DNA of 61,740 nt, counting the filler, from Hausera hauseri (taxonomy: Eukaryota): assembly GCA_046269625.1 (NCBI GenBank). It is 12 parts of 12 records of this genome, joined end to end, with 100 filler letters (N's around TTAATTAATTAA, not from the genome) between each part and the next. Parts side by side here need not be neighbours in the genome. Positions count along the whole stretch, not along the records: positions 8,773 to 15,288 come from JBJURY010092098.1; 11 more parts are not named here. One strand, given 5' to 3'. Of this stretch, positions 7,257-55,599 are shown piece after piece (position 1 is the stretch's first letter; each line of letters opens with the position of its first letter). Made by a program: the position numbers and the translations under genes. The notes beneath the pieces were generated by a model. It was not told the origin of the DNA, ran no database searches, and worked only from the letters and a program-made list of their open reading frames with translations.

Positions 7257-7621
7257 CTAGCAGGACAGTTTGTATCTCGCTAGACTTTACTGTTGAGAAA
7301 CTAATTAACGACATACCGGCGAATAGCGCCAATTACATCAAGTAACTGAAATAGTAAGAATCGAGAATTAAAATTTGGGATTGTAAGTTGATAGAAGGAA
7401 TTAACTAAAATAAACTGAGAGCAAATATTGATAGAGCCAATTCACATTAAAACTTATTAGTGAACGGTATAGAAAAACGTAGTCAAAGGGAAACTCGTAA
7501 TAAGCTTTACCTCGAGGATAAGATAATTTATAAGCGCTGTTTATCTGACACTGAACTAACCTCCGTTAAAGAATTTAAAGCTGCCCCCAGAATTAAAGTA
7601 GACAAATCGAATAAAGTAAAG

Positions 7622-8672
7622 ATGGCAGCAGAGAACCCAGCCGTAGCTCAAAAACTTGACATATTTACGTTCGATTCCTTGAATTTACCAGCATACGACG
7701 GCGACCCTGACGTTTTAAACGACTTTTTACGAACCTCTAAATTGCACGCAGGAGGTACCAGTCTTGCACATGAGGTTATGATTAAACAACTGTCTTTATA
7801 CTTGAAAAATCTGGCTGCAGATGCTTATAGTGAACTTACTAATGATGAGAAGAAATCATGGTCCTCTGTAGTAAGAGTTCTAAATGGTAAATTATTGGCA
7901 ACAGTGACACTAGAACAGAAGCTTATGGCCTCCCAGAATAGAACGCAACAGAAGGGAGAGTCAGTTACTCAATTCGCATTCGCACTAAAGAAACTTGCTA
8001 ATAGTTACGTGAGTACGTTAAGGATAGCTAATGCGACAAAGGCAAAGGCAGAAGCAGAACGAGAAGCGGCAGAGAAGGCGAGTCCGCCAGATTTGGATGT
8101 CATGATGACAACGCAGTTGATAAACGGTATATGGTCTAGAGATTTAGTTAAGCAACTAATTTTAGCTCGATCAGACAATTTTGAGACTGCATTACAGTTA
8201 ACGCAAAACTTAGAAATGGCACTATATAGATACGCCAAACCGAGTGATAGATTTGACCGGAATAATGATCGCGACAATCGAGACAGAAACCGAAACAATA
8301 GAAGATTTAACGATAAGGACCGAGGTTATCAAAATAGAGCTCAAAATTCCTCTAACCGCAGCACGAGATATGACAATAAAAACTTTAGTGATAATGGGAA
8401 CACATACAATCCTTATAACAAAACAGGCTATATGTCGGATAGAAACCAAAATAATGAACGAAGCAATAAGAACCGATATATAGATAATCGGAGCTTTGAA
8501 AATAGGAATAACGGAATCGATAAACCAGCTCAAAATAAAACAATGGGTAGACCTAAATCACCATTGAATGAAGACGGGCGACTAAGGATCGGTCGAGACA
8601 GAAATATAATTTGTTATTCATGTGGTAAGGAAGGACACATAGCTAAATCATGCCCTAATCCACGGAGTGTAT
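7622..8672 (+). CDS. gag: Ty3/Gypsy Gag, 3' truncated by gap
   Basis: LPAYDGDP capsid start, RTQQKGESVTQF MHR-like motif, Asn/Arg-rich linker, CYSCGKEGHIAKSC zinc knuckle. Confidence 0.85.
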
Positions 8673-9549
8673 NNNNNNNNNNNNNNNNNNNNNNNNNNNN
8701 NNNNNNNNNNNNNNNNTTAATTAATTAANNNNNNNNNNNNNNNNNNNNNNNNNNNNNNNNNNNNNNNNNNNNACAGACTGTCCATCTGATACGACTGTAC
8801 TGTCAATATGTCGACAGAATTTGAATATTTTTTAGATTTATGGCTGAAGAGACTCGGTATTCGATCCAGCGTTATTTAAATGAGAATCCGAATCCGGATA
8901 ATGAAAGCATCGTTGGGTATAACAATAAAAAGTGCTGCCCTGCGATTGTCGAAATACTGCTCTTATCGCTTTGATGACTTGTTTTAGAGAAACAGTTTTG
9001 GGCACACCGAAACTGTTTGACCTTCTTGTCAAGCGCGAGAATAACATACAAACGTGTATAAAGAGCGGTATGAATTCAAAAATACTCACTAGATTTCCTC
9101 CAGTTGTTTTTTATACGCTTAAAAAATTAAATGGTCTGAGATTGCCGAGCGCACATTCAGCAATCCTCCGGCGGCCAAAATATCCATCATGGATATTCCC
9201 CGGCAGCGTACAGGGATGGACCGTACAGAGCGGAACACGGTAATATTGCTCATTATTGATAAATCAACCAGAAGATTTCTTTTTATCCATTTCAGACATT
9301 TTGTCATAAGCCCTACTGCGATTTTATTTTTTTTCGTAAATGTGCATGTAACATAGGGAATTGAATTTAGATTAGGTGAGTCAAAGATTCTTTTATTCAG
9401 AAGTACTTTTACATTTATAAATGATATAATGTACGATCCCCTTCCATTTGTCATGAATGTTCAATACATGCATCGGGTTTAAATAGCGATGCATAAGGTC
9501 TTTTAAGACACGACGGAAAAGTCAAAAACATTATACATAGCAGAGATGC

Positions 9550-12500
9550 TAGATGTCTACTCATGGCGAATATCGCTTTATCGCCACAATGCGCATACTT
9601 GCTTCCTAACACTTACATATCCTATAAAACGTGCGTTCATAAGCAAGAATCATCTATAAAGGCAAAACTCTCAAACAGTCAATACGTACTCCGAGTTAAC
9701 AGTGATATCACAGCCATCGATACTCACTGCCCAACCGAAGACGCCAACTATCCGACACGCGTCGTCAGTTTTATTCGTCGTCAAATCGGGATTCCTGTCA
9801 TTTCACATTCTACTCGGAGAGAACACTTGGGTTTACAAACCCGCAAAGATCATATTTATACTCTGACTGTGAAAGCGCCCGATTCCAATAGTCATCAAAT
9901 ACATATCTGATAATACGCCTCCCGAACGTACCATTCCTGCGGGGAACTCGGTCACCCCGAAGTTTGGGACCCGCTGCAGCGAGACTTAAGTCCCGGCCGC
10001 CCATACTATACCATTGGGTCGGACGGCATCGTTCACTGACGCCCCACAACATATTCCTGGCCATACATTTACATCATTTTCTGTCTTCTTTTTTTAAACA
10101 ATTAACACATTTACACAGTTGCATCAAGACACGCAAACACCATTGACTACTACAACTCGATCTCCACTTTTCTACGCTCATCTGAGTTTTACATCACGCA
10201 CAATGGCTCCACAGTACCTATAGCTAACACCCTACAATCTTCTTCAACTTATACCCACCTCCAGATACACTTCCGCATCCGTGGTGGCATAAATTCATCG
10301 TCCACCATAGACATCACGGATAAAACCACCACGAAACCAAAGTCTGTCATACTGCTTCAAAAACCCACTCATGCTTCCACTAATAACCCTTCACCTACTA
10401 CCTTTCGGCTTCTTTCCCTCACTACACTGATTTCTTAATAGACAACCAAGGCTCTAGCAAAACTTGGTTGCAATTCCACCAACTGTGGCTACAAGCCAAT
10501 AACGTTACCGATACCGTCACTAAAGCACACAATCTCCTCTTTTTACTCCCTAACAACATCAAAACACGAATCCACAATATTATCGAAATCTTTGAACTTC
10601 CTGATCCATATTCACAACTCTTCAACGCTGTTCTCAAGATCAGAGAACCCTCAATGGATACGATCATACAACGCTTCTTCCACGACAATGCTATAGGCAC
10701 ACAACGACCATCAGACTTTTTACGCACTTCTTTGGCACATCTACACACTCCCGTTGTCAATAAAGAACACAATCCAGAACTACTGCACCACTACTTTCTC
10801 AAAGCGTTACCCATCCAAATTCGGGCTCTACTTACCGTGGTGGAGGACTCCACGGCTCTTGAGAAACTGGTCGAATTAGCCGACAAGACGCACAACGTTC
10901 TACACTTAAACTCCCCATCTATCGTTTTGGCGGCTTTTGCCGCTAATGGTATTCAAAGCAACAACACATCAATAGAGCAACAACTAAATCAGTTACGTTC
11001 TGAAAATACATCATTACGCGCAACAATTAACAACATTAACAACAAATTAAATGAACTATCCCTGTCTCGCCGAAGGGATTTTATCGCTGACCGTGCCCAT
11101 TCTGCATCTAGAAACCGGTCACCATCTCCTGCGCTGTCGTCAATATGCTGTTATCAGAGTAGAGTCAACGAAAGTGCCAAAAAATGCTGCCTAGGGTGCA
11201 AATTTTATAATAAAAGATTTTTTTCGACACCGTTGTTTGCATTTTCCACGCAAAATTCAAAAACCAAGCTCTTAAATGCATTCCAGTTTGCACTTTCAAA
11301 ACAGATACGAATGACGGTTGTGCTACCTTGTCTTCTAATACTCATCCCAGTTCACCTTTTCAAAAAAACTAAATTTGCAGCCAGAAGTCACGGAGAACTC
11401 TGGAAAAAGGGCACTACTACACCTTCTGAATACCGACACGCCTCTTTTTCTGTCTTTACTCTAAAGGATGCAATCACCACTCCTACAACGCAATCCGTTG
11501 ATTTTCTCATTAATACAGGTGCAGCGATTTCTTTATTATTAAAAACTCTTCCTGTACTAAATTCACCATTTAGAATTAAGCTCTTATACACCGCTTCAGG
11601 TCAACCGTTGCTCATTTCTGGAATGGCTAAACTATCTTTCATCTTACCAAAATTTTCACACTTTTCCACTTGACGTTTACAGTTGCTAACGTCCAGACGG
11701 CAATTCTATGATCCGATTGTTTATCACATTATAATTTATTGGTTCACTGCAGTCAACGATGTCTGAGCATCGGCATTACTGGCAGCATTACTGAGCATCT
11801 CAATAGCATTTCGACTACCGCGCAGTCGATCGAGACGCGGAGATCAATTTTGAGAAAATCAGAATATAATCCAAATTTTTGTAACAATAATTCATTTCGT
11901 AAATTCTAAAATAATAATATTGATATTCAATCGAGGTTCGATGTCGTTAATTGTGATACTGCCACCAACGTTAATTCATTTGACGAAATCACTTTATCCA
12001 ACACCATTTTCAATTCGACCACCTTACACCAAATACCACTTGACTGCACATTACCAAACAATTCACAAATTGCAGCTGCTACTAATCAAGCTGTTTCACC
12101 ATCATAACCGAATCTCTCACAGATGCCAACAACTTTACAACAATTCGCCCTGTACGATCATTATTCCAGCTAACTGTCATAGACGACACTCCTACAGATA
12201 AAACGATACCGCCGGCGCAAAATCACTTCGTTACGGTCAGCAAAAATTAGTTCTGCGGGTTACTTCATAAAGACAAAATATAATTCCCCGAAGACTTGTA
12301 TTCGGCAAAATTCGTATGGCTAAAAAATCAAACGCCGTGCGGTTTCCAGCCGCAGCATATGGGACCCTGTAAACTCGTACAGTTGCATTCACACAACGCT
12401 ATTATTTCTAAAGACGGCAGAGACCTTACAGTGCATATTACCAACTTAAAACTCGCCTTTTTCGTCGACGACACTTTACCAATCGACACGTCAACCTCTT

Positions 12501-13195
12501 TTCTCACTCCTACACTTCCTGCTATTCCTATATCTATTGCTATACCTGTTCCACCTCCTCCTTTTGCTCCTATTTTTGCTTCATCATTTTATACACCTTA
12601 TACTTCTATTCCTATCTGTCGCCCTATCTCTACCACTACTCATGTTTCATTTTATACTTCTAATCTTCCGCCTAATTCAATTCCAGTTCTTACTCCAATT
12701 TCTATGTCTCCTCCTTCATCTGCCACTACGTCCTTTACCAATCCCTCGTCTTCTAACACTCTCTTGAACACCTCCAACCATCCGTCTCCAACAATCACTC
12801 TTTCTCCTTCACCTTCTCCTTCTATTCATTCTGACTCGTCTTTGTACAACACAATACTTACACCAAAATCTGACAATTTTCCCCAACTTTAAACTCTGCA
12901 AGAAAACACATCGCATACAGCCAAAACACGCAGAGTCATATGTAGCATGTATAGTAGGGAAAAATCTGTAGGATGCACCCAACGTCTTCTTCACGCTAAG
13001 ACCAATTGATACAGACACCTTTTCGTTTGCCGATTTTTCTTTCTGTCCCTTTTACTCTTTATCGTTTTAATATTGCCTCGGCGAAGGGTAATGTGGTGCT
13101 CACCGCGGCCGGTGCTCTTTAACCCATCTGGTTGGGCACATCCGGGTGTCCGCTATCGCCGCGTCGGATCAATAGTCGGGTTTGACTCTTCACAC
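9550..13195 (+). mobile_element. CsRN1-like Ty3/Gypsy element, internally deleted (partial LTR, PBS, gag-pro, post-integrase tail, PPT, partial 3' LTR)
   Basis: Degenerate tRNA-Trp PBS CGGTCACCCCGA (9949-9960); gag QRPSDFLR..LADK with CHCC knuckles; protease FLINTGAAISLL; tail MGPCKLVQL..VHITNLK; PPT ~13080-13090; LTR start TGTGGTGC at 13092, homologous to 55707 (-). Confidence 0.85.
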
Positions 13196-13759: not shown

Positions 13760-15288
13760 CAGATTTAATTGTAACTAGATCTTGTGTATTAGATTTGTTT
13801 TTGGTATTGAAGTGGACTGAACAACACTTTGGGTGTGCTGGTACATTATACACTCGATCCGATAGTTACCATTATCTTTTGACCATAGATAACTATGTTG
13901 GCAGTCCAATATCCTACGGGGAAGGCAGTTTGTCCAAAAAGTGATGCGTTACCTATATCTGAAGGATTCGCTCGTTTTATCTCATGTTGATATTCTAATG
14001 GTACGATCATGTGTCGTATTAAGTTCATTGTTGCTCTTGGGTCGATTAAAGCCCTTATGTAATGGTTTCCTATGTATAGAGTAGTTCGGGGTCTTAAATC
14101 ATGCAGTTGAAGTATGGATTGAAGTTGTCTTTTAGTAGAATCTTCGACTACGGGTAGTAATGAATATACTCCAGCAGTTCTGACCACACCGTTTTCTACT
14201 ATAAATTTTTCATTATAGGGTAAATTAGTTGTATTGTTTTCTACTAAACTTGCAGTAGTTTGCAGTGGTGAGGTTGGTCAAGATAAAGTAAATGTCGGTG
14301 GAGATGCACATTTAGACATTATATCCGAACTCGCTTTCCATTTTTGTGATAGCGAAGTTAAATCGGGATATTGACTTGTTGGTCTAAGTTGCTCATTATC
14401 TAATGATTCAGTATGATTTGCAGCTTTTGACATAACCATTATTTTTTATAATAACCATGCTCACAGTAGGGATCCTTAATTTCCTTTCCAATTTTTTTGG
14501 TGATTAAAGGCAAATTCTGTATGTTTGTATTTGTCATAGGTAGTTCAGTGTAAGAATTATTCTCGATATTCATCATTGGTGGAAGTTTTGGTGGCGGTTT
14601 TTTCGTTTTATTTTCAAAGTTAACATGCTTTCTAATAGGTTTTTCCATCTTTTTTCTTCATGCGTCGTTAGTATTTTGCCAAACGATGTGAAGTCAGCGG
14701 ATAATATTTTCAATGAAAATACTGTAAGAGTGTAAATTTCATAATCATTTAGTAATGATGAAAGAATGGCTTTTGCTGTTTGAATGCTTAGATAGATGGT
14801 AAATATTCCGGCTGATAAAGTGCCAAATTTTATGAAACCTCCCAATAAGGTTTTTAGAAAGTTCATCGTAACTTCCTTATAGTGTTCTGGACTGAGTAAC
14901 TTTTCCAATCTTGCATCTTGAATTCCGTCATCTAATATGCGATGCAATGCTTTACTTAAAGCTTGTTCACTTTGAGCAGGGTATCTCAATTCTTGAATCA
15001 TATTGTTTATTTTGCCTCTAGTGTAGACAGTGGTTTTCGAAATGTCCGTGAACAAATTCTTTTGTACAGCATGTTTTAATGCAGTCATAGTGAGTCTTTT
15101 GGGAATTTTACATGGTTTCTTTCTTTTTGGTAATACTATCCAAGTACCAGCATTATCATATTTTATGTAGGGCACAGTTTATTATTTGAGTTAGCACAGT
15201 GTTTCTATCGGCATTACTCGGGTGATCGGTTATACATAACGAATTTCTTTTTTCTATATTACGGTAATTTCTACATAGCATTTCTTTT
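13760..15288 (-). pseudogene. Retroelement fragment: C-terminus of chuvirus-like glycoprotein followed by aspartic protease
   Basis: KCYVEITV..PITRV, GGFIKFGTLSAGIFTIYLSIQTAKAILSSLLNDYEIYTL..; downstream RPRTTLYIGNHYIRALIDPRATMNLI; homologous to 46850-48430. Confidence 0.8.
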
Positions 15289-15388
15289 NNNNNNNNNNNN
15301 NNNNNNNNNNNNNNNNNNNNNNNNNNNNNNNNTTAATTAATTAANNNNNNNNNNNNNNNNNNNNNNNNNNNNNNNNNNNNNNNNNNNN

Positions 15389-25340: not shown

Positions 25341-25379
25341 ATATGACAAGAATACAATGGTCGCATTCATGGACGACGG

Positions 25380-25720
25380 ATCGAACAATAGAGTAACCAC
25401 AACCGTAACCATAAGCAAAGTCAAAATAGAAGCAATAGTAGATGCAGAAGCAGCAAAAAATTATTTAAGTAAAACTACGATGGAGACACTAAAATTGAAA
25501 TTGACCGAAAACAGTGAAATCAATCACAAGTTAATAAACGGAAACCAATTGAGAGTAATAGGCGTAATCACAGCCTTAACTAAATTAAATGGGAAACGTT
25601 CAAAGATCCTGTATCACATACTAGAAAATATTACAATTCCCTGTATTATAGGTCGAGGTACGCTAATAGATTATGATACAGTGGTAGATGTAGCTACGAA
25701 TTCACTGGAAAAAAAACAAA
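25380..25720 (+). CDS. Retropepsin-like domain downstream of integrase (degenerate active site)
   Basis: VTISKVKIEAIVDAEAAKNYLS...INGNQLRVIG...PCIIGRGTL, in frame with the integrase GPY/F motif in ORF 25117-25749. Confidence 0.65.
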
Positions 25721-27509
25721 AGATTAGGACAAATACCGAAAAAATATAAATGAATTGGAAGACGAAATAAAAAGGTTTGAACTGCTATATAACATGCACT
25801 ACAGTCAAAGTGATAACGATTATCCCCTTTTGACACCAATATTGGTCAGAGTATATAGTAATTATGTTAATGCGGAACTTTATCCCACAAACCCATTGAC
25901 TCGTATAAACCTACGGTTATAAATACGAATTACCCATTATATACCCTAAGCTGGTGGTAAATTAAACCTAACTATAGGATATATAGATGTTATTTGTTTT
26001 GCCAACCCACAAGAGTCGTATTCTAATCTCACTATTGGTTTAGATGTACTATAAAAGTTAATTGGAGCAGAACTCAAAGTCATCTCTCGATCTAACGTAT
26101 TCAACGGCGATGGCTACCAAGATAAAAAACCTGAACCTAATGATCACTGGTGGTTCGCGTCGGGAAAAGAGAATGTTCCACCCTCATTAAACTATGTTAC
26201 TTTAAATCAAACTACCGAACAAAATACAGAATCTACAGTAGCCCGGGAAATAATGCAAACCCGAGTAGCAGAAACACCCTCAGCTAATACTCCAAGAGCG
26301 ATTTTTGGAACTCCCTTTAATTTTTCTACCATAACCTTGATAACCTTAATACTATTCATAATACTTAGATACGCAAACACCCAACCAACCCAAACAACTA
26401 CTACAACTGACTCCTGGATTAGTACAGTGGTATTATTGCTAATATTTGTATATTAAATATTCCAAAATAGTACTACATGCGATGAAGAAGAAACAGATAA
26501 CCTCTTTTCGAATGATCATACAAGAAGACAAGTACCCCTACCTTCAGTAGTTAATGCGGACACATATTCAGTATCTAACGTAACGAGTATCCCAAAGAAA
26601 TTACCACAAAACTCTTCACGCGATATATCAAGAACTACATCGACAGCTTCTATGTATGTTTGACCTAACAGGAGTACAAACGACGAGCCAAGTCCACGCA
26701 CCTACAAGTTATACAACCATAAGTAAAAATTATAAGAAGCAGAGAAGAATATCAGACTCATAAGAAAGGAAACTAAAAGGTACCAGCCTGATAAAACCAA
26801 GAAACTCCCAGTAAATCATAAACCTAAATCAATGAGATCGGATCACGTTGAAAGAGCATAACACAAAGAAACCAAACCATTAGAACAAAATTATGCTGAA
26901 CTACGCCAACAAAAAGGAAAAAGTCTACCACCATTTCCTTTAACGCAAGAGGCTGCAAATCGACATCGATTATAGAATTTCCTACTGGTCACCCCAGAAC
27001 GTATTAATTATGCTCAAGAACTAGTTCAAGGGATCCATAAATCGTGTAGCGGAATTAAGAGATTTTTTCGTTAAGTATCATGAAAAATGGGGGATAACAG
27101 ATGAACAATATAGGCCCATANNNNNNNNNNNNNNNNNNNNNNNNNNNNNNNNNNNNNNNNNNNNTTAATTAATTAANNNNNNNNNNNNNNNNNNNNNNNN
27201 NNNNNNNNNNNNNNNNNNNNTAGCATAATTACGGATTCATGCATGCTTGTATGTGAGCAAGGCTTACCTTGGATTTTGTTTAAACTAATCAATTTTCAAA
27301 TTATGTGGCAAGTTCATACAGTTGATGCACTAAAACAAAGGTACAAATGCGGTATGTTGGCAATACAAGTGCAACATGTTGGCAACAATATGCTGTACTG
27401 AATTTACCCTACCATTAAAATTATTTATTTCCCCTTACATTTGTGTTTTGTTTTACTGTATCAATTATCAAATTCAAATAAAAATAGACAGCTAACGAGA
27501 ATCTGGTAT

Positions 27510-41879: not shown

Positions 41880-44789
41880 NNNNNNNNNNNNNNNNNNNNN
41901 NNNNNNNNNNNNNNNNNNNNNNNTTAATTAATTAANNNNNNNNNNNNNNNNNNNNNNNNNNNNNNNNNNNNNNNNNNNNAGTGTATCATTTGCAGAGACT
42001 AGTAAAGCTAGCACAATAAAAGATAATTTGGAAGGAATCTACGGAAAACGAGGTGATATAAGTATGATTATCGAGATGCAGGACTTACGAAGATATGTGA
42101 AAAATATGGGCGAATCTAATAATCCACAAGTAATCAAGGCAAGGAAGGAGTACGAAGAGAAGCCGCAGCAAATGGAGGTTTATCATGGGTTGAGAGAACC
42201 AAAAACGGAGTACGAAAAAATTATAGCACATACTAACATGGACAGGAAGAAAAATCTAAATCAAGCAGCGAAAGAGGAGAAGGAAGAAAAACCGACTACG
42301 TCTTCAAGTGTAGACTTGGACGCAGATACCGAAATCGTGTCTCAAAATAAAGAAAAAACAACGGACGAAGTTGAAAATGAATTCATTGGGACAATAATAG
42401 AGGTAGAAGCCCCTCCCTTAGGAGAAGGTCGGGAACTCGTTCACGATCCCCTATTAAAAAGGTTGTAGAAAAGGAGGAAGACTTCACCATCACTTTAAGA
42501 GACGAAACAGAGTTAAATACCCCTGTAATAACTCAAGACGTTCCGGAAACAACAAATATTTCATATATTGATGAAAGTAATGAAATATGTCCGTTAACAT
42601 TTAGCGAAGAGGAATCAGAAGAGGAAAAGTCTATAAAATTTGGGAAAATGAGAAAATATTGGAAAAATGCAAGCGAACTAACCAAAACAAGAGACGTACT
42701 GAATGATCCCGAAAGGCTACCGGAAAGCTTACAGAAACTCCAGAAGATGAGCAAACAGTTAGATATCTCCGGAAAAGAACAACAATTCATAGAGAATCTA
42801 TATAAAAAGCTTAAACCCGGTTCTCAGAAGAAGGACGAAAACACACCTTACAAACTGCAAGAAACGCCACAAGACTTGATAGAAAGTTGGCGAAATAAAT
42901 TAGAATTGTGGACAAGGAGTGAAATTGATTTTTCGAAAATATGGTGGAATAGAAACGAGCCATTTCTCGAGCAAGTTAATCAAGCACGCGGATTATTAAG
43001 CATATTAAAGGATAACCCAAAACTAAAACACGTAAGACGTAATTTAGAAGGGTTAATATGAGATAGAAAAGGCGATACTTTCTTACCTCCATAACAAGCT
43101 AGGATACGAACTGACCAATGCCGACTTAGAGATATTGGGTATAGACCCAATCGATATTCCACCTCTAATAGCAATGTGCAGCCTGATAAGAGATAACTCT
43201 CGGAAATATCCAGATTTTAAAATTTGGATGGAAAGAGAAGACGAAATACGAACCAAAATTAACGACTGTAAAATCGGTGTAGTTCACCCGGAAAGAACAG
43301 AAGCACAGAGAATAATACGTGCTTGTCTTCTCGAATTAGACGAGTATAAAGAAGAATTCAACTACATGAAGCATATTATAGAATTTGTACGAGGGCCAGA
43401 TCACGAACTAAAAGAAGCCCTTGAGATATTAGATGAAATAATCTACACCAAACCGGCAATATCCAAACAACTAAAGAAGTGAATTGACTTGTTACCTTTA
43501 ATAGTAGGGATAGTAAACGAAAGACTAAGAGAATTCACCGTGGTTGAGCCCACAATGAGGCACCAATTGGAGGAAATGTTGCTGGATATCGGTACGATGG
43601 AAGATGAAGCGAAATTACGAACTAAATTCGAATTATTTCGAGAACGTGAATTTATGAGCAGGGATCAAGAGCGAACAACATTAACAGCGATATATAGTAT
43701 GATAGAAGAAAAGGAGTTCTACAGAAAAAGAAGCAAGCTAAGTGATCTTCAGCGGAGTTTAGCGAACATCCGTTGAGAAGGGATACAGAACCTAATGCAG
43801 AAACCGTTGAAAGAAATCTCAGCACAGGAAATAGAAACATTAGAAGTATGTAACGATCACCGAATTGCTCTGGCGCAAACACTACAATATCTACAGAATC
43901 CAGCAGAATGGACACCAGGTTTCGACCTACATTGCCACACCGAACTAACGGAAATTCGGAAGGATCTTCAGTTGACTGCCGACGAATCTAAGTTCATAGG
44001 CAGGCTAATGGATGCAATAGATCCGGACGCTGAAGTATTAAATCAAATGCACAAATTAATCCTACTATTAACAGAAATGGCAGAAATTGACGAAGTAGTA
44101 GCCAGACGACTGACGAATCAAATACGCTCGATAAAAGAGACTCGGTTACGTTCCGAGAAAAGACAGCGCGAACTAAATGAATTGCTGAGAGAAACAGAAG
44201 TTTACAAGAACAAGTATTCCTTTACGGAATCTGAAATGAATGACAAAACGGAATTTATAGAGATGGCAAAGAGACAGAATCGCAGAAATGACTAGTTATC
44301 AGGAGAAAGCCCTAATACAACCAGAAGAAATGTGCCGATTAATAACATTGATACAACAAGCGTGCGAAAATAAAGACGGATTTAGGATGTCCGTAATGAA
44401 AACATTGCAATCGCAGATAAGATAATTACGAGAGAGAGTCCAAGTCGGACAGGCGGCACTAATGAACTACAAGTTACCTGACGCGGATAATGATGCCGAG
44501 TGGGATGAATATTTCCAAGGTCTAACCAAGAAAAGTCCAAGAACTCCGATACAAATTTATGAGTCACCAACTGGTGTGCAGAAAACGAAATTTGATGTGC
44601 AAATGTTACTTGATCCCACGCTAGCTGAAAAGGAATTAAGCAGTATGTTGAAAATAAACAAGCGAAGATAAGTTAAGGAAATTGATTCCGACCTTGACTA
44701 AGCTATTCAGCGAAAATATCGCATACAGCGCCGTACCCAAGCTCTTAATAAGAGAGTACGCCAAACTATTGAAAAATAAACCGGAAGCT

Positions 44790-45010
44790 TAAATTAAAGT
44801 GAAAGTATCGTCTGAAGGAATGGATGACGAGGAATTTGAATGCACTACCTATACCACCGTTTGGGACATAAAACAGCGGATAATGGATAAGGGTGGTAGG
44901 GAAGGGGTTAATTACCGACTCTACTTCAGAGGTAGGATATTAGATGATCTAGAATTTCTAATAGACGTAGGGATTATACCACTCGAAGCGAACCAAATAA
45001 TAGCCATAAT
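44790..45010 (+). CDS. Ubiquitin-like domain within the element polyprotein
   Basis: TTVWDIKQRIMDKGGREGVNYRLYFRGRILDDLEFLIDVGI fits the Ubl pattern T(I/V)..(V/I)K..I....G......RL.(F/Y).G+.L.D...L.D.GI. Confidence 0.7.
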
Positions 45011-45191
45011 CGACAGCGAGCAAACCAAAGATGAAGCCATGAGAAAGGCACATACAGAACATTGTGTTGGGAAAATCATGGGGATCCAAGATGCCGCAAT
45101 GTATTTCGAATACTTACAGACTGATGATGAAAAACCGCAGTACGATAGGAACTTAGTCCCCCTAAGCGAAACCTTACCACCAATAAAAGCG

Positions 45192-45218
45192 AAACGACCG
45201 GTCGGAAGACCGAGAAAG
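45192..45218 (+). CDS. AT-hook motif
   Basis: KRPVGRPRK. Confidence 0.65.
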
Positions 45219-45710
45219 ATAAAAGAAATTGATTATAATGTAGATATGATTAGAGAATTGAGACAACTATTGGTACCAACCCCGAGTTCAGATAACGACG
45301 AACTAATTGAGCTAATGAAAGACCTAATCAGGTTAGTCAGCTACACTGGACTCCAAGGCGACATATTATCTGAAAAAGAAAGATTAATATATAATATAGT
45401 TCGGACAATGAAGACTTCGCGATTCAAATAATCGAAAAGCACCCTTCCTGACGAAACCGTAATCGACAGAATTATGATAGACAATACGATGGAAGAATTA
45501 AGGAAAGTCTTAATATATTTAGCGGTAAGAACTAACCCTCTCCGGGAAAACGAATTTGACAAGACAATTGTGTTAGCTAGAAAAGCTGCGAGAAGGGTAC
45601 CTAAGGAAATAAAATGGACTAAATTATTTGAAAAACAGGACAATGCGAAAAGGACCAATAACTTAGAGGACATAGTACGAAACATCTCTTCGAGAAAAGG
45701 GAACGAATTG

Positions 45711-47460
45711 ATTTGGTTAATCAGTCTACTAACTATAATGATGTTAGTGAAGCAGATGGGAGCAGTCACCATATACGACTGTGAAAATTTAAAGTGGGCC
45801 AGAAATATTCCTTGATGGACTTAGAAACATGTGAGGATGCGAGGTCCCACAAGCTCCAGACAATAGAGAAGAGATATATATTATATCAACAACGTGAGTT
45901 AATTGCAATGGATGCAACAGAATGCATGATAAATAGGTCTCGCTGCATATTTCATTGTGGTAATATGCACGGCCATTCTTCAATAATCAAACCTACCACA
46001 CCATTGATACCAATGAACGTGGATATGCAACATTGCTTAGGAGCCCGGTCAACCGGCAAAATGGTTTGGGACAGCATGGAATTGGAAGCCCAAGAAGGAA
46101 AAATAATTAGAGCCTACTAAGTGGCAGTAGGAAAATTGAACATTCACACCGGTTATTGTGTTGGGGAAGAATATGACACAAGGAAGGGAATAGAAGGAGG
46201 AATTAGTCGTAGATTTTTATGAAACCGAGTTAAGATCCTTAAAAGCGATGTTTCATAACGTTACCAAACTATTCAGCGAAAATCAGAAATGTCACATTCA
46301 TGATGGTGCTTGCACGTTCCGAATTTTGGTTATCGTATGGAATCCACCCTCCAAGATGGATTGCAATTTCATCAAAATCAGAGTTAAAATTTAATGAGAC
46401 CATGGGAAGCGTTATTCGAGCAATTTACATACTAATACCAGGTCAAGAGAAGATGTAATAGAACAATCCACACCGACGATATTAATATCAGACGTGCACG
46501 GGTTAAAATTTATTAGAAAGTTTATGTTATCACGTTGCGATGTAGTTATGTATGCCACTAACTACGAAATATTTTTTGTAGCAGAAACAGAAATCGACTT
46601 GAAAACGTATGATTTAAAAACACAAGGTGTGCGGATTGAGGCTTACCTCAAAAACCGAGACGACTATTTCTATTACAAAGGGTAGACCGGAATAGCGGAA
46701 CTATATCACAAAATGATAAGAAATGACTGCAGATTAGACCTGAAGTCATAAGAACTAAACTGGCTTTAATTTACGCCAAACCAGAATTGGCATCACCAAT
46801 TATTCCAATGAAAGACGGTGTTTTCGGGCGAGTTACAGGAGAAGTCCTATTAACTTACGAATGTGAGAAAAGAGACGTACCAATCAACTTAGAGGAGAAA
46901 ATATGCATGCAAGAATTACCCGTCATCTATGAGATTATGCCGAGATTAGCGATGCCACTCACCAGAGTATTATTGGCGAACTCAACCGAACCAACGATGC
47001 TGAAGGAATGTAAAACGAGCTTAGGCCAACCAAGGTTTAGACGAAGTGGAACCGATTGGATAACTCTACCAAATGGAGGTACGGCCGCAGCCCCTAGTAA
47101 ACTAACCGGGACAAATCTAATCAAAGGATTATCGGAAGATAAATTCGAAGATACAGCTAATAAAGGAATTTATAGGCCAAAAGANNNNNNNNNNNNNNNN
47201 NNNNNNNNNNNNNNNNNNNNNNNNNNNNTTAATTAATTAANNNNNNNNNNNNNNNNNNNNNNNNNNNNNNNNNNNNNNNNNNNNGGATTCTTAGCCATCT
47301 ACTTCTTAGTCCAGTTAATTAAAGCAGTGATCCAAGCTATTATAAACGGATATGAAATATTCACCTTGACAGGATTGTCTTGCAAACTTTTGACCGCAAT
47401 TATCACAACCTTTGGAAAAATTCTTAAGGTTTACAAAGAAAATCGCTGGAAAAATGAAGT
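45711..47460 (+). pseudogene. env: Chuvirus-like (class III/gB-like) envelope glycoprotein with signal peptide and C-terminal TM
   Basis: LIWLISLLTIMML..AVTIYDC, YSLMDLETC, LYQ, ECMINRSRCIFHCGNMHGHSSI, GYCVG, C...DGAC, GEVLLTYEC, CMQELPV..MPLTRVL, KGIY, TM GFLAIYFLVQLIKAVIQAIINGYEI. Confidence 0.78.
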
Positions 47461-48109
47461 AGAACGCCACGTCGGGTGTTATAACCGCAAATGCCGAGGG
47501 AGGTTTTTGATTTTGTATAGACGTAAAAATAAGTCAACAGTAACACGAAAGGATAATTCAGATGATGACGAGCCTAAGGGAGGAGAAGTGAGATCTAGAA
47601 TGAAGATGCACAATATGTACTCAGTGATTAACGCGCTGTTACCTACAATGCCGCCAACAGCACCAATATGTGAAGACTGCGACCGCAAATTAATCACACC
47701 ATGTAGATCAGAAATCTATCAAAAGCCCATTAATTATGAAGATCCTTATAAGAAGAAAAAACAATATGTAGTACTACGGAAAATGAATATTATCAACCAA
47801 AGACCTACAGAGAACAACCATGGAATATTGTACTCAAAAAGAATACCGCGCCACATAGAATCGAAATCAACGATCTGGGAAAAACCGAAACTGTGTTCGA
47901 TCTCGGGCTAACTACCTCAGGAACCGCTAATTAGCAGTCGCGTCAATGAGACGGCAAATAATAATTTATACCCAAACAGAGAATTAAGACAGTTAAGAGA
48001 AAATATTTTCTCATCGCCAGAAATAACGATAAACGGACACAGTCTCTACTATAAAACGGTCAAAGATAGCGTCAAATTGCTAAGGAACAGCAGCAGAAAG
48101 GAGACCCTT

Positions 48110-51100
48110 CGCTAAAATACACATCGAAGATTTGGAAGTGTATTTATTAATCGACACAGGATCGCAAACATTATTTATAAAATATGACTCTATACCAACC
48201 ACATTGCGAGATCAGCTATGTCCGCTATTATCGTCAGATCCTGGTAGCGTAGGAGCATTTGGGCAAGTATCGAAGCCGAAATTTAAATGGACTCCTACTG
48301 TTCATATGATGGGCCAAGCGCTCCAACATAAATTTGCGATAATGGACCAGTTAACAAATGATGTAGTACTAGATTGTGATATATTGAAACAGATACCAGG
48401 CATAGCAATCGATGTGCATAACGGAAAATTAATTGACCTCGAACCAATAAAAGGGACAAAAGTAATAAAGGAAAGGAAATGGGGCGAAGTATGGATTCCG
48501 GTAGATGAAGACATTCCGCCCAGAACTAAAATGATAATTATCGCACAAATTCGTCAAGACAAAGACCTACCAGTATATTCGAACCTTAAGAGAATATCGA
48601 TCCAAACCTTATGTTTAGCAATATCTTATGTATATTAGTGACGGGAAGAATACCCAGCGGACTAATTAACAATGCAACAATTCCGGTAAGATTTCACGCT
48701 AACACTACTTTAGGTAACACTTGCAGAGTATCAGAAGTAACGATATAGGAAAAGCCGTATAAGTGAGCTGAATTTCCGCCCTACGTTAAAACCAAACTCT
48801 CTCCTGAGGCATATTGCAAGTTCTACAAATTACTATGTTAATACCGTTAAATAATTGCGCAAAATGAGGAAGACATAGGCAGAGCAAAGGCCCTGAGATT
48901 AACAATCCCATTAAGAAAGAAACCATGCTCGAATGACAAAATCAATCTAGAAGAACAGAAAATGCCCAAATGGTACCCACTTCCTCATTCATTAAGACCG
49001 GAGATAACCAAAGAATTAGAGCGAATGTTAAAGGCCGATATAATTCGCCCAAGCTACCGATCGTGGTATTCACCTATACTTATGGTTAAGAAGAAAGGAA
49101 CCACGAAACATCGGTTTTGTATAGATTATCGCGCATTAAACACACTGATGATGAAAGACTCGTTCCCTCTACCATCAGTAAAGGAAGCTTTAGACAAACT
49201 ATCAGGAACAAAATGGTTCACCACTCTCGACTTACAATCGGAATATTGGCAAGCGGAAATCGAAGAAGAAGATCGATATAAGACAGAGTTTAAGACACAC
49301 GATGGCGTATACGAATTTAATGTTATGTCCTTCGGCATCACCACAGGACCAGCTATTTTTACTAGAATGATGAATAAGATGCTCATGGGACTTGATCATG
49401 CTTTCGCATATTTAGGCGACGTAATGATAGCATCAAAACAGAGGAAGAACACTTAAAAGACATTGAAAATACACTCATGTAACTGGAACAAGCAGGGTTG
49501 AAACTAAATTTAAAGAAATGTAAATGGGCACGGAACGCAGTATCGTACCTCAGACACATAGTTGGAGAAGGAGGATCAAAACCGGATAAATCCCTGCTAA
49601 ATAAAGTAGCCGATTGTATGGAACCGCAAAATCAAAAAGAGTTAAGACACTTGTTAGGCCTATGTGGGTATTACGCCACTTACGTACCGGATAATTCTAA
49701 AATTAACGCACCACTATACCGCTACTCAAAAAAGGAACTAAGTGGAGATGGACGGAAGTGGAGCAAAAAGCATTCAATGAAATAAAGAAAATTTTGACAA
49801 GCGACCCAGTTTTTAGAAACCCTGATTTTAACCTACTATTTATCATTAAAACCTATGCAAGTAAAAAAGGTATAGGATATGAACTAGCTCAGAAACTAGA
49901 AGATGAAGAACTAGAACACCCAAAAGCCTATTGAGGACGCTCATTAAAGAAAGCAGAAAAGAATTATTCGGTTACTAAATTAGAAACGTTAGCCGTAAAG
50001 GAAGCACTACGACACTTTAACGTTTATGTCTATGGAGAGAAGATTATAATAGTGACCGATCACAAAGCAGTTACGACATTGAAAGGATGATCTAATAACC
50101 AAACATGTAGATTAAACCGTTTGATAGAGAAAATCTCACAATATAGCATTGAATTCTAATACAAACTAGGCACTAAACACGTCGACGCAGACGCACTATC
50201 AAGGTTAAAGACAAAAACCAGTGGGATTATTACAGCGAAGAAAACGCAACTCGAACAAATAGTTGAACATCAAAGAACTCTAACCCTGGATAAAACGATC
50301 AGGACCACCGCAGAGCAGGCTAAAGATAAGATTATTCAGTAAATTGTTGAATTCACACAAAACGGCAAAATACCCAAAGGACGGCAACTGAAGAAGCATC
50401 TGAAGAAACACGGACACAAATACAGCGCATCGAATTAAGATAATATCCTATATTATGAACGAAAAGGAAAAAGACTAATAGTTATTCCAAAAGAATTAGG
50501 CGTCGAAGTAGTCATGGCTGAACATGATTCGTATTTAGCTGGACACATGTCTTGGAAGAAGACATTGGAAAGGATATTAAATAGATACTATTGGCAAAGC
50601 ATTTACATCGATGTAAAGAATTGGGTAGGTGCTTGCGAAGTTTGCGCGACAAAACAAAAGGAAACGAAAGGCTACGTAGCGGAATTAAAACCCATAAACG
50701 TACCAGATAGGCCCATGCAAGCTATGTTTATGGATATAGTGGGACCTTTGCCTAAAACTCACAAAAATGACATATATTTTAACATGCGTGGATCAATTAA
50801 CACACTTCGTCGAACTAGTGGCACTACTAGATTAAAGGCAGAAACTTTAGCCAACGCAGTGGTAAGAAAAATCATCTGCAGATATGGATTACCAGAACAA
50901 ACCTTACCGGATAGAGGAAGAAACTTCACAAGTGAATGATTCGAAAAAATTACTAAGATATTCGAAATCGAACGATTAACTACTACCGCGTATCACCCCC
51001 AATGTAATGGAATGGTCGAGCGAATGAACGCAACAGTCATTCGAATACTATCAACAGTAGTGATCAAAGACCAAAAGGATTGGGACGAATTCCTAGAAAG

Positions 51101-51135
51101 AACACAGTTTACAATCAATACTACACCACATCCAA
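48110..51135 (+). pseudogene. pol: Ty3/Gypsy pol: protease, RT, RNase H, integrase
   Basis: LIDTGS; WYSPILMVKKK, RFCIDYRALN, LDLQSEYWQ, YEFNVMSFG, YLGD (from YLDD); NYSVTKLETLA, TDHK, DADALSRL; HDSYLAGH..CEVC, MDIVGPLP, DRGRNF, YHPQCNGMVER. Confidence 0.92.
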
Positions 51136-51139
51136 CGAC

Positions 51140-52084
51140 CCATTAAAACGGATGCTAGAAGAAAATATAGCTAGTATAACAAAAAACCCAAAGGATAACT
51201 GTATCCAAATAAACACAAAAGGACGGTTGATTAAAGGACGAGTAATCACAGTTCAATTCATAAGGGATGACAAATCAACTCATAATCAACAGTAACGTCA
51301 AACTGACGTCGAAAAGCCGAATAAATGTTGAAAGTTATCTCAGAGATATAGATATAAAATCCGGTTAGACTTATATGAAGTTCGACTGAACCAGTCGAGT
51401 ATTTACCTAGGAAGTTATCAATTGGAAAATCCAATTTGGGGAATTCTGCCTAAGACGAAAACAAGCAAAATTACGACTACAAAAACAAATACAACCACGT
51501 CTACATCCACCAAAATCGTCCAAACGAGTGGATTACCTCAGAAGAATCTAGAAATGATTCCTATAAAATATTGGACGCAACAATATGAAATAACGTTCAT
51601 TGTGGAAGAAGCACTGAATTACGACGTAAAAATAAGCTGCCGAACATTATACAACAATCAGAAAGTGACACTGGCTAAAGGAAGCCATCGAATTAAATGC
51701 ACCTACTTAGAACCCAAAACAGACTACATAATACAAATAGGTGCAGAAAATAAACAAAGTAAAACGTTTACGGTTCGCTACCTAAACGAGATTGTCTTAA
51801 CGAAACCATTAACTAACGAGGAAACAAAAGATGAAATTACGACTACCGCTAAAACGAAAAAACTAAATAGACAACTTTGTCATTAATATAGATTGTTGGA
51901 ACGTCAACGTTTGCTCTCATAATTTTTATTGCACTTTGCCGATTGATTACCAAAAATTGTTACAGTAATCGTCACAAAATCAACGAGAGGGAATTAAGGG
52001 TGATGATACCGAAGGATGAAATCAATGATGGAATAACCTGACAGTTACAGATAGAGTTATTCCGCCATCAAACAAAGAATTGGT
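51140..52084 (+). pseudogene. Putative type I membrane protein: FN3-like domain(s), Thr-rich stalks, TM, cytoplasmic tail
   Basis: CTYLEPKTDYIIQIGAEN (FN3 L.P.T.Y...V.A.N signature); TKTSKITTTKTNTTTSTST; LSLI*IVGTSTFALIIFIALC-RLITK. Confidence 0.55.
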
Positions 52085-52600: not shown

Positions 52601-53989
52601 CAATGATTTCCGACGCCGTCCACATCATCGCCCAGCTTGGGTATGGTTGGAAAATCCCCGCCCCTGGCATCTCCGCTAAAGCGGAATTTGATCGTTTGTA
52701 ATTACTCATTGAAAAGTTAACACCAGTTGTTGAAAATTTTATTGTCTCTCAAAATACTCATTTGGGAACAAATTTTCCGAAATTACAAAATTAAATTATA
52801 CTTTTAATATTACATTTTTAAATTAAATTCATGGTTGGATTTTTAACATTTAAAAATGCTTCGAATTTAAATTTAGAATTTCAGTTCTCGATTATATCCT
52901 CACAATATAAATGTGATATTTTACCAATGACACATGCATAAAGTATTTTGTAAATCTGTGTAAATTAATTTTAAGTTTATTCTACAATTGGAAAAATTAT
53001 TATAAATATCAGTTTTTAAGGTTTGTAAACTCATGTCGCACATATCATTAATTAGCACATTCTATGCGAGTACGTGGATGTGAAGCTCGTGTTAACTCGT
53101 TTCCTGCGCAGAATGTGTTTCTGAATTATAACACTTAGGAAATTCAAATAATAATTATAAATTTCGATTTTACTAATATTTAATTCTTGTTGGGCGTTTC
53201 TAAAATTGTCCTTCTCCAAAACAAACCCAATACAAAATAATACACCATTGTATTTGTTGAGCTCAGCTCATCGTCATTATCATCTTCGAAAATTGTGCAA
53301 CTGCAGCAGGGAACCATAGCGACGAAACAACTCAGCTAGGCACTCAGGTTTCTTTGGAACGATAATCTCAACACTGTCGGTTCCGCTTTCTACAACAAAT
53401 CGTAGCCCTCCATCACCAGCATACCCAACCGCTACACCTTCCAGAAATTTGTGTCTGAAGGATGCGGCTTGAAATTCGACGCACCAACCACGAATCATTG
53501 TCTCCACCCCAAACAATTCAGATCATCCATCGATTCTCCCAATTAACCCAAATTGCCACACAAACACCGCAGACACTCATTTCACAAATATTCGTCCTCT
53601 TGCTCCAATGGGACATTGCATCATTAAAATTTAAAACAAGACCCAATGTTCGAGTACTTGCACACAATAAAACTCCAAGGCGAATAAACTCATACCTTGT
53701 TGAGTGATCACTCCCCCCCCATCCTAAGCCGAGGTAGCCTCTCTGTTCTTAACAGGGCCATGGTCAGAAACAACTGATGATCTTCATGAACAAAACTCAA
53801 TTCATCGTAAGACGTATGCTTACAGACTCTCTCCACACTGACATCTTTAATATCCGTCTTTGGAACGACAAGAATTAATAACTTTTCATCAGCCGTTTTG
53901 TAGTCCAAAATAATAAAAAAGAAGCAACTTGATTGATTCCATTGTCGCACATTCTTCCTTCTTCCATTCCTACACCAATTTCAAGTGAA

Positions 53990-55245
53990 GTTAATTCAAA
54001 CGCACCAGCATCTGTAAACGCATTTGTCTTCAATAGCATTTTAATGGCCTTTAATCCATCATTAATAGCCTCTTTGATTTGTGTTAAAGTATGTTTATTC
54101 GGTCCTCTAATCAACAAAGTAACTGACAATGGATTTCTGCATTCCTCAATAAATGTAAATTTCACATCTCCAAGAGCATATTCATAAACAAGACCGGTAT
54201 AACCCAGACAATCTGGTGCTAGTTCTTCAACACAATTTACGGCATAATCACCACAGGCTAACGCCATTCGTTCCACGTTTCTTCGCTTAGCACGTCGTAG
54301 AGCTAAAATTCCTTCTTTGGCAAGCATATCCAACGACAAAGGATCAATTCCTTTTTGGTTTATCACAACAAAATTATATTTAGAATCACCTTGGGCTGCA
54401 GCTTCATCACAAACCTGTCTCTTCAGAGATATAATTTTTTGAACTCGTTCGTCAGTGAATTGTCTTTCGGCTTGGACTAACTTTTCTCGTTTAACTGCAC
54501 TCTTGTAGAAAAAACTACTGTTTATTTCAGTTTTTTCATATTCCAACGACACATTGCATGTTAAGATAAATGCATTTTTAACCCTCTTGGGCATGTCCGG
54601 ATGACGACCACCATAGTTGAGTACTAATCCCTTGACCAATTTACTATCCATATCTCGTTTATGTTGCATTTGCATAATTTCCAAACGATGAAGATCCAGT
54701 GCAGAATATGAATCATAAACACTCAATACAGCGTTTACGATATGATCGCTCAACATTTTAGCCAAATCGCAGTCCAATTTCGTCTTTACGGACGTTCCAG
54801 CGACGTTAACTAAAGTTTGACGATCGAGCTTTTCAATATCTGAAAACGGTTTCGTTATTTTCATCCTTTCTAAGACTTCAAGTGCCTTCACTTTTGCAAG
54901 ATCGAAACCTTCGGTAATTAGTCGAGGATGAAATGACTGCATATATAGTCCATCATACATTAATCCATCAGCCTACGTCAATAATTCTGCGATCATCAAT
55001 ACGATGCTTGTCGTTCCATCACCGGTAATATGATCTTGAGCAGCCGCAGCTCAAGCAATTAAACTAGCATCTTTGGTTAATTTAATATCTCCAGCTGCAG
55101 ATACCAACATCTTTAAAGTTCCTTTCGGGCCAAAATTGCTCTTTAAGACATCAGAAAGGCCTTTATAAGCTGTAAGATTGATATTGAATGCATTCTGTGA
55201 CTTCGCATATTCAGCTTTGGGATTTAATAAAGCTATTGACGCCAT
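53990..55245 (-). pseudogene. CCT6: T-complex protein 1 subunit zeta (CCT6) pseudogene, essentially intronless, 3' truncated
   Basis: [93 protein letters not shown]; in-frame stops and deletion of the GNVLL..HPT segment. Confidence 0.92.
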
Positions 55246-55599
55246 CGATGAGAAATCTAGAAGTTTTAAATTCTGACACCAATTCTAATTCTGTTGAATA
55301 AAATCCATTGATCAACAATAACTGATGAGACAAAAGTACAAATCGTAGAAAAAAAATCAAAGTCAAAACGTTGATAAAAATCCAAAATGTCAAGTTGTAA
55401 AAGTTTTAAATTCAAACCCATTTTATGTTGGATAAGAGCGGAAATAACCAAATCAGTTTACAAATCGTTCTTACTAAAACTCGTTAGTTTACTAATTTCT
55501 CGAAGCGTGTCGCTAATTTTTTTAAATCCCATCTTCCAAGTCTCTCCACAAAAATCATATGTGAAATGGTCTGAACAATGTTCGTTGCTGCACGACACT

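Follow-up and report, generated by a model that had tools for sequence, protein, structure and literature searches.

A decayed viral glycoprotein and a decayed retropepsin lie next to each other on the minus strand at positions 13849–15286 (copy A), and the locus raises the question of whether the two belong to one element and what the DNA between them once encoded. We studied it within the window, the whole stretch of 61,740 nucleotides analyzed, which is animal DNA in parts of 4–6.5 kb with eleven identical artificial spacers between them, most of it occupied by decayed gypsy elements. A second copy of the arrangement is found on the plus strand at 41980–52084 (copy B; Table 1). We conclude with good confidence that copy A derives from a Burro-like gag-env-pol Ty3/gypsy element, of which it is a dead fragment, that its ancestor likely encoded one polyprotein and that the linker is likely the tail of env with an ALIX-type motif; the identity of the element and its env–linker–protease layout are highly probable. 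This layout has already been published, and what is new relative to the literature searched is the linker motif. Copy A represents a further decayed subfamily of the published layout, and the motif signal at the level of the family is worth more.

Table 1. Features of copies A and B and the adjoining assembly spacer
Feature	Positions	Strand	Remarks
Artificial assembly spacer	15289–15388	.	44 N + TTAATTAATTAA + 44 N; 100 bp; one of 11 in the window
Copy A env, C-terminal third, chuvirus/gB-type (class III) glycoprotein	14576–15286	-	PF24664
Copy A membrane-spanning env end, block best conserved vs copy B	14630–14809	-	48% aa identity
Copy A linker (env tail), decayed coding, 544 nt	14095–14638	-	Two frame changes and one TGA
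Copy A YPDL, late-domain-like motif	14359–14370	-	92 codons ahead of the protease
Copy A in-frame TGA	14278–14280	-	183 nt ahead of the protease start
Copy A retropepsin remnant	13849–14094	-	PF00077 E 5.5e-4; terminates at a stop
Copy B ubiquitin-like domain, upstream of env	44793–45050	+	PF00240 E 2e-5
Copy B signal sequence and env glycoprotein, broken	45705–47464	+	PF24664; signal by hydropathy
Copy B coding linker, 646 nt	47456–48101	+	Two breaks minimum
Copy B protease (DTGS), RT, RNase H, integrase, broken	48102–51143	+	Ty3/gypsy order
Copy B FN3-like domain and transmembrane helix, after integrase	51500–51960	+	fn3 E 0.017; helix KD 2.25

Structure of the Two Copies

The env remnant of copy A aligned to profile positions 394–609 of PF24664 (Monjiviricetes_fusion; E 3.1e-23, with stops read as X), which was also its top match in Atlas (0.95). 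The 5′ side is cut by the contig edge at the spacer 15289–15388, and five in-frame stops fall within the first 36 codons, near that edge. The initial annotation had recognized the C terminus of the glycoprotein on the minus strand and paired it with sequence near 47350; both points held, with the matching peptides at 14743 downward on the minus strand and at 47351 on the plus strand. It had further described a frame with a single TGA running straight into the protease. Such a frame exists, open from 14445 and interrupted by one TGA before RPRTT at 14094 and LIDPRA, but env sits in another frame and two further frame changes are needed. The env frame terminates at 14576, and the open stretches after it are at 14657–14442 in the second frame and at 14445–14281 and 14277–13849 in the third; passage from env to protease takes one frame change within 14657–14576, another near 14445–14442, and the TGA. 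Because two frame changes lie upstream of the protease frame, copy A displays no env–protease fusion, and the in-frame state claimed for it was seen in intact relatives (below) but not in copy A itself. The retropepsin remnant scored 20.6 bits against a PF00077 cut-off of 20.7 and has DPR in place of the catalytic DTG, and past 13849 homology is no longer recognizable. Truncated, frameshifted and without the catalytic motif, copy A is, to judge from its predicted products, inactive.

Copy B consists, in order, of a decayed coding region, a ubiquitin-like domain, a signal sequence, env, linker, protease, RT, RNase H, integrase, an FN3-like domain and a membrane helix. Its env matched PF24664 at profile positions 37–124, 340–480 and 553–609. 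The spacer at 47185–47284 interrupts env, about 72 profile positions being absent there, which indicates that the joined contigs are either in true order or from the same family; the env anchor, linker and pol share one contig. The pol region matched PF00077, PF00078, PF17919, PF17917, PF17921 and PF13683, and no Pfam match to dUTPase was found downstream of the protease. Within the linker we located PTAP (47654), TAA (47909) and LYPxxxL (47966), with one frame change just ahead of the protease. The ubiquitin-like region also matched PF13881 (E 0.029) and is in the frame of the env signal, with one stop in between. A PDB sequence search with the upstream part of copy B returned nothing besides ubiquitin, and the corresponding searches with protease, env and FN3 gave no useful information. 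The FN3-like domain matched a profile of four relatives with E 4.7e-5, the segments for which were picked by eye.

The 3.7 kb upstream in copy B are decayed coding DNA with no gag Pfam match, and copy A is cut in that region. No long direct repeats that would mark LTRs were found for copy A or copy B, both of which reach contig edges. A Bcl-2-like domain suggested by eye in copy B was rejected after a negative profile test: no match was obtained with Pfam, PDB or a two-sequence profile, at low sensitivity. MATH, BIR and ankyrin domains were not detected in copy B either. An AT-hook-like GRPRK lies upstream of the env signal at 45190–45225 (+; PF02178 E 0.16), and GRPRK-like stretches were noted by eye in P0126, P0127 and P0129, three of the protein relatives described below.

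Relatedness and Coding Character of the Copies

Env lies directly upstream of the protease in both window copies. The best-conserved env block was 48% identical over 60 aa and scored 159, compared with 32 ± 5 for shuffled sequences (0/500 as high). The proteases were 26% identical over 74 aa with a score of 76 (z 13.5), against 21–44 (z −0.2 to 4.9) for four other proteases in the window. Between the linkers (544 and 646 nt), no local alignment rose above shuffles; the initial remark that the linker had diverged was sound in this respect but missed a short retained motif. Reading through the linker of copy A requires 3 breaks, compared with 7.9 ± 1.5 in dinucleotide shuffles (1/1000 as low), and that of copy B 2, compared with 8.3 ± 1.6 (0/1000), while the known coding parts of copy B have 2–6 breaks per 600 nt and non-element DNA 5–10. 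As the counts are far below shuffles and within the coding range, the linkers are decayed coding DNA. Neither of them contains a gag knuckle or a Pfam family.

The signal of selection differed between the domains. In the env block, identity at codon positions 1/2/3 was 0.58/0.80/0.43, and the dN/dS comparison proposed with the initial annotation indicated purifying selection (dN about 0.41, dS about 1.8, the latter near saturation); the protease block gave a dN/dS of about 1.1 and no purifying selection. The proposal of two subfamilies sharing an env–protease unit stands as far as env directly upstream of protease in both, sister envs and a family-specific protease are concerned. One could suppose that env and protease are chance neighbors, left by two decayed elements with noncoding DNA between them, given that the linkers cannot be aligned, copy A has three breaks and its protease is weak. 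Yet order, strand and a similar spacing are common to both copies, the protease match is family specific, the linkers are open and 11 relatives are fused, and we consider such a coincidence barely credible.

Intact Relatives

We searched 1.84 billion protein representatives with the env of copy A and obtained 44 matches. Env, linker and retropepsin occupied one ORF in 11 of these, including 9 of the 13 best matches, with linkers of 57–317 residues; the remaining 4 of the 13 end 10–49 residues past the anchor. The retropepsin after env was confirmed by Pfam in 9 of the 12 long matches scanned and additionally in P0136 and P0161. Four long ORFs, those of P0124 and P0129 and of two cluster members, P0167 and P0169, extend further into RT, RNase H and integrase. 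In a quick env tree, which had 39 rows once 7 short matches were left out, A and B were sisters (SH-aLRT 97) within a 16-row clade (SH-aLRT 98) made up of A, B, all 10 fused rows present and 4 short-tailed rows. No long tail stopping short of a protease was seen in the A/B env clade, in a protein library that favors open frames. As the relatives are kin, the rows are not fully independent.

The relatives differ in their further domains. A CCHC knuckle precedes env in P0126, and in P0128 a Bcl-2 match is found there. Two or more retropepsins follow env in tandem in P0125, P0126, P0127, P0129, P0130, P0167 and P0169, and in P0169 matches to a C2H2 zinc finger and ankyrin lie between them. P0124, which spans a gypsy env-pol polyprotein in full, is labeled a hypothetical protein from a Flavobacteriaceae MAG and is probably eukaryotic DNA mis-binned into a bacterial genome.

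Other searches added little. A protease profile built from the relatives was rejected as a family marker, as other proteases in the window outscore A and B. A word-index protein search with env returned nothing and one with RT a single unrelated gypsy protein; P0001, from the RT search, is a gypsy polyprotein of 2,622 aa that includes a DNA methyltransferase domain (PF00145). No relative emerged when viral contigs and env-bearing metagenome contigs were scanned for patterns, and none of the 8 loci from an RT scan had env, linker or protease matches.

In-Frame Stops ahead of the Protease

A single in-frame stop interrupts each linker, and the two are about equally far from the protease (183 nt in A, 190 nt in B). 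These could be one shared and real stop of the A/B subfamily, about 62 codons before the protease, with pol expressed by readthrough as in gammaretroviral gag-pol. The stretches after the stop do align weakly (87/5000 shuffles), the best ungapped register being +1 from the stop of copy B, no Met occurs from the stop to the catalytic site, and the chance of the coincidence is 0.03–0.05 per anchor. The coincidence was noticed after the fact, however, and isolated decay stops are frequent in copy B, with 21 listed across three frames. The base after the stop is C, at background rate (17/55), RNA structure is not shared (z about −2 in A and about 0 in B), and the LYP motif of copy B is downstream of the stop of that copy. 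All 11 relatives that reach the protease do so in an open frame, and a literature search on readthrough in such elements was without result on this point. We regard readthrough as improbable and retain an ancestral single polyprotein as the preferred reading.

Late-Domain-Like Motifs in the Linker

The motif classes were fixed from copy A (YPDL) and copy B (PTAP, LYPxxxL) before the relatives were examined, and P0167 and P0169 were left out of the counts as near-duplicates. Individually the motifs of A and B are weak, YPDL appearing in 6% of shuffles of the copy A linker. Among the relatives, YPx1–3L was present in 4 of the 11 fused linkers (shuffle mean 0.51, 2/3000) and in 7 of the 27 env-only tails with a length of 30 aa or more (shuffle mean 0.76, 0/3000). 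P(T/S)AP occurred in 1/11 fused linkers and in 4/27 env-only tails, the latter against a shuffle mean of 0.35 (0/3000), and not once in 11,417 ectodomain residues; PPxY was not enriched in the 11 fused linkers and 27 env-only tails. The bare dipeptide YP, a class picked after the relatives had been viewed, was found in 9 of the 11 fused linkers (shuffle mean 2.24, 0/3000), is absent in the other 2 and is present in both window copies. In a 9-row set, it ranked first of 400 dipeptides, and its density was 7.7 per 1000 aa in linkers vs 1.2 in ectodomains. The nearest YP was 15–41 residues ahead of the protease in 9/11 relatives, whereas the motif-to-protease distance is about 45 codons in copy B and 92 in copy A. 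The segment bearing the motif is poorly conserved, and hydropathy would place it on the cytosolic side.

The linker motif may be a late domain with a role in ESCRT recruitment and putative binding of ALIX, a reading that we consider to have about an even chance of being right. Searches of the openly accessible literature turned up no account of a late domain in a gypsy, chuvirus or errantivirus protein, nor of FN3 in such elements. Pairs of an aromatic residue and proline can be retropepsin cleavage sites, and YxxPhi signals occur in the tails of viral glycoproteins. Tyr-Pro could thus be a cleavage site that frees the protease or an adaptor sorting signal of the YxxPhi type, the layout being unchanged, and a position 15–41 residues ahead of the protease in 9 of 11 relatives is a plausible place for a processing site. 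With such a function, one has to explain why YPx1–3L is also enriched in tails without a visible protease (7/27), why P(T/S)AP, a late-domain motif of another class, is likewise overrepresented in those tails and absent from ectodomains, and why the spacing from Tyr-Pro to protease varies threefold. Cleavage or sorting is to us a possible but somewhat doubtful function, and it is the late-domain reading that we develop below.

Genomic Context and Host

Two further gypsy regions were noted in the window. A retropepsin-like domain with DAE for DTG follows the integrase of another gypsy family at 25378–25746 (+), with short hydrophobic cassettes downstream of it at 26300–26450 (+). A gag with a CCHC knuckle at 7451–8672 (+), cut by a spacer, weakly resembles the N-termini of P0131 (E 2e-6) and P0126 (E 2e-3) and may be the gag of an env-pol family.

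The surroundings of copy A allow a different account of its origin, namely that it did not insert on its own but traveled, as part of an env-pol transcript, inside the terminal repeat of another gypsy family, one with a Ser/Thr/Pro-rich tail. The cut tail of that family stands immediately on the other side of the spacer, in the orientation of copy A. Elsewhere, its conserved end cap (13073–13180 (+) vs 55726–55619 (−), 73% over 108 nt) precedes an intronless CCT6 that includes the start (53878–55250, −), and scraps of Prp8 and a NUP210-like gene (8929–9907, +) lie ahead of another copy of the family. The junction, however, falls within an unsized assembly gap, and in the window most spacers are flanked by unrelated pieces. 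We find cargo unlikely, and if true it would leave the linkage of env and protease unchanged.

The CCT6 gene, on a separate contig, has parasitic flatworms as its best named matches. In a tree of 34 rows, it fell on the flatworm side (support 99/96), and the named cestodes, trematodes and Protopolystoma formed a clade (support 100/99) that did not include it. The host is probably a flatworm, on the evidence of this single gene, and one gene does not fix the class. A literature search on env elements of monogeneans gave no relevant result.

A Possible Route to the Particle

The C-termini of P0124, P0129, P0167 and P0169 comprise a signal, an FN3-like segment, a stalk and a membrane helix and resemble that of copy B. 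We regard this FN3-TM module after the integrase as a candidate second surface protein of the family. From hydropathy, an internal signal would direct env to the lumen of the ER, the membrane anchor of env would lead the linker and pol back to the cytosol, and past the integrase another signal and anchor would present the FN3-like module on the outside. Counting segments of KD ≥ 1.8, we found all four proposed hydrophobic segments in P0124 and P0167, three in P0129 and five in P0169. Following retroviral precedent, host signal peptidase and the protease of the element may then cleave the chain, and the env tail would keep the YPx(n)L motif, in some cases PT/SAP, by which ESCRT would be recruited to the budding particle.

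We tentatively propose, as a possibility, that gag-env-pol gypsy elements may bud with ESCRT through a late domain in the env tail, ahead of the protease at the position of HIV p6, and that the FN3-bearing membrane protein encoded after the integrase may be the attachment partner of their lone gB-like fusogen; the window would then record this machinery in a flatworm lineage other than those from which intact elements have been described. The late-domain-like motif offers a cheap and direct test of whether such elements were built for budding in an envelope, and the missing attachment protein could be supplied by the FN3-TM module, a candidate for that role.

Comparison with Known Systems

Burro (GYPSM1), a giant gypsy element of planarians, has env in frame between gag and pol; its env matches the fusion glycoproteins of mononegaviruses and has a Ubi/SUMO-like domain upstream, and decayed Burro fragments with stops and frameshifts are found in Dugesia japonica (PMC6431247). 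Section 7 of that paper does not mention a linker motif or a post-integrase FN3-TM module, and the word "fibronectin" is absent from its accessible text. As in Burro, a Ubi/SUMO-like domain stands ahead of env in copy B; unlike in Burro, Bcl-2, MATH, BIR and ankyrin were not detected there, and it is because no Bcl-2-like domain was detected that we call the elements Burro-like and not Burro. Burro exceeds 25 kb and includes a dUTPase-like domain, whereas gag, LTRs and total length are not visible for A and B, and its one-frame env-pol is not open in the window copies but present in the 11 relatives.

Chary and Hayashi (eLife, PMC13524379) described Ty3/gypsy "errantiviruses" of GAG-ENV-POL order with an HSV/gB-type ENV, which occur in Nematoda, Bryozoa and Platyhelminthes. 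Among the flatworms, Macrostomum, Prostheceraeus and Schmidtea contributed its nine intact elements, and of the 55 flatworm assemblies surveyed, the parasitic ones had at most one ENV match; according to the same paper, the transmission mechanism is unknown outside Drosophila and gB-type entry is unexplained. The terms late domain, ESCRT, ALIX, budding, ubiquitin and fibronectin have zero occurrences in its main text. An intact ORF was the inclusion rule of that survey (PMC13524379), and the ORFs of A and B, unlike those of its elements, are broken. In common with the GAG-ENV-POL errantiviruses, both copies have a gB/chuvirus-type env directly upstream of protease, and copy B and four long relatives have a Ty3/gypsy pol of PR-RT-RH-IN order; copy A ends after the protease. 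By their predicted domains, copies A and B are relics of elements of this GAG-ENV-POL errantivirus type.

The nematode NERVs differ in host, which here groups with flatworms, and their env-pol reportedly forms one continuous ORF. They are metaviruses in which the env-pol order is flipped (Sacco et al. 2022, J Gen Virol, as cited in PMC13524379). Anakin, a BEL/Pao element, carries a chuvirus glycoprotein (PMC7642597) and thus resembles our elements in having the same type of glycoprotein on an LTR retrotransposon, but in the pol of copy B the RNase H and the H2C2 integrase match models of gypsy type, and no model of a BEL peptidase was matched. In retroviral budding, YPXnL binds ALIX and P(T/S)AP binds TSG101, as in EIAV p9 and HIV-1 p6 (PMC8402826). 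The motif described here differs from these in residing on the tail of an envelope protein and not on Gag, in an invertebrate gypsy element, and is putative from sequence alone; it resembles them in that a motif fitting YPXnL stands just ahead of the protease.
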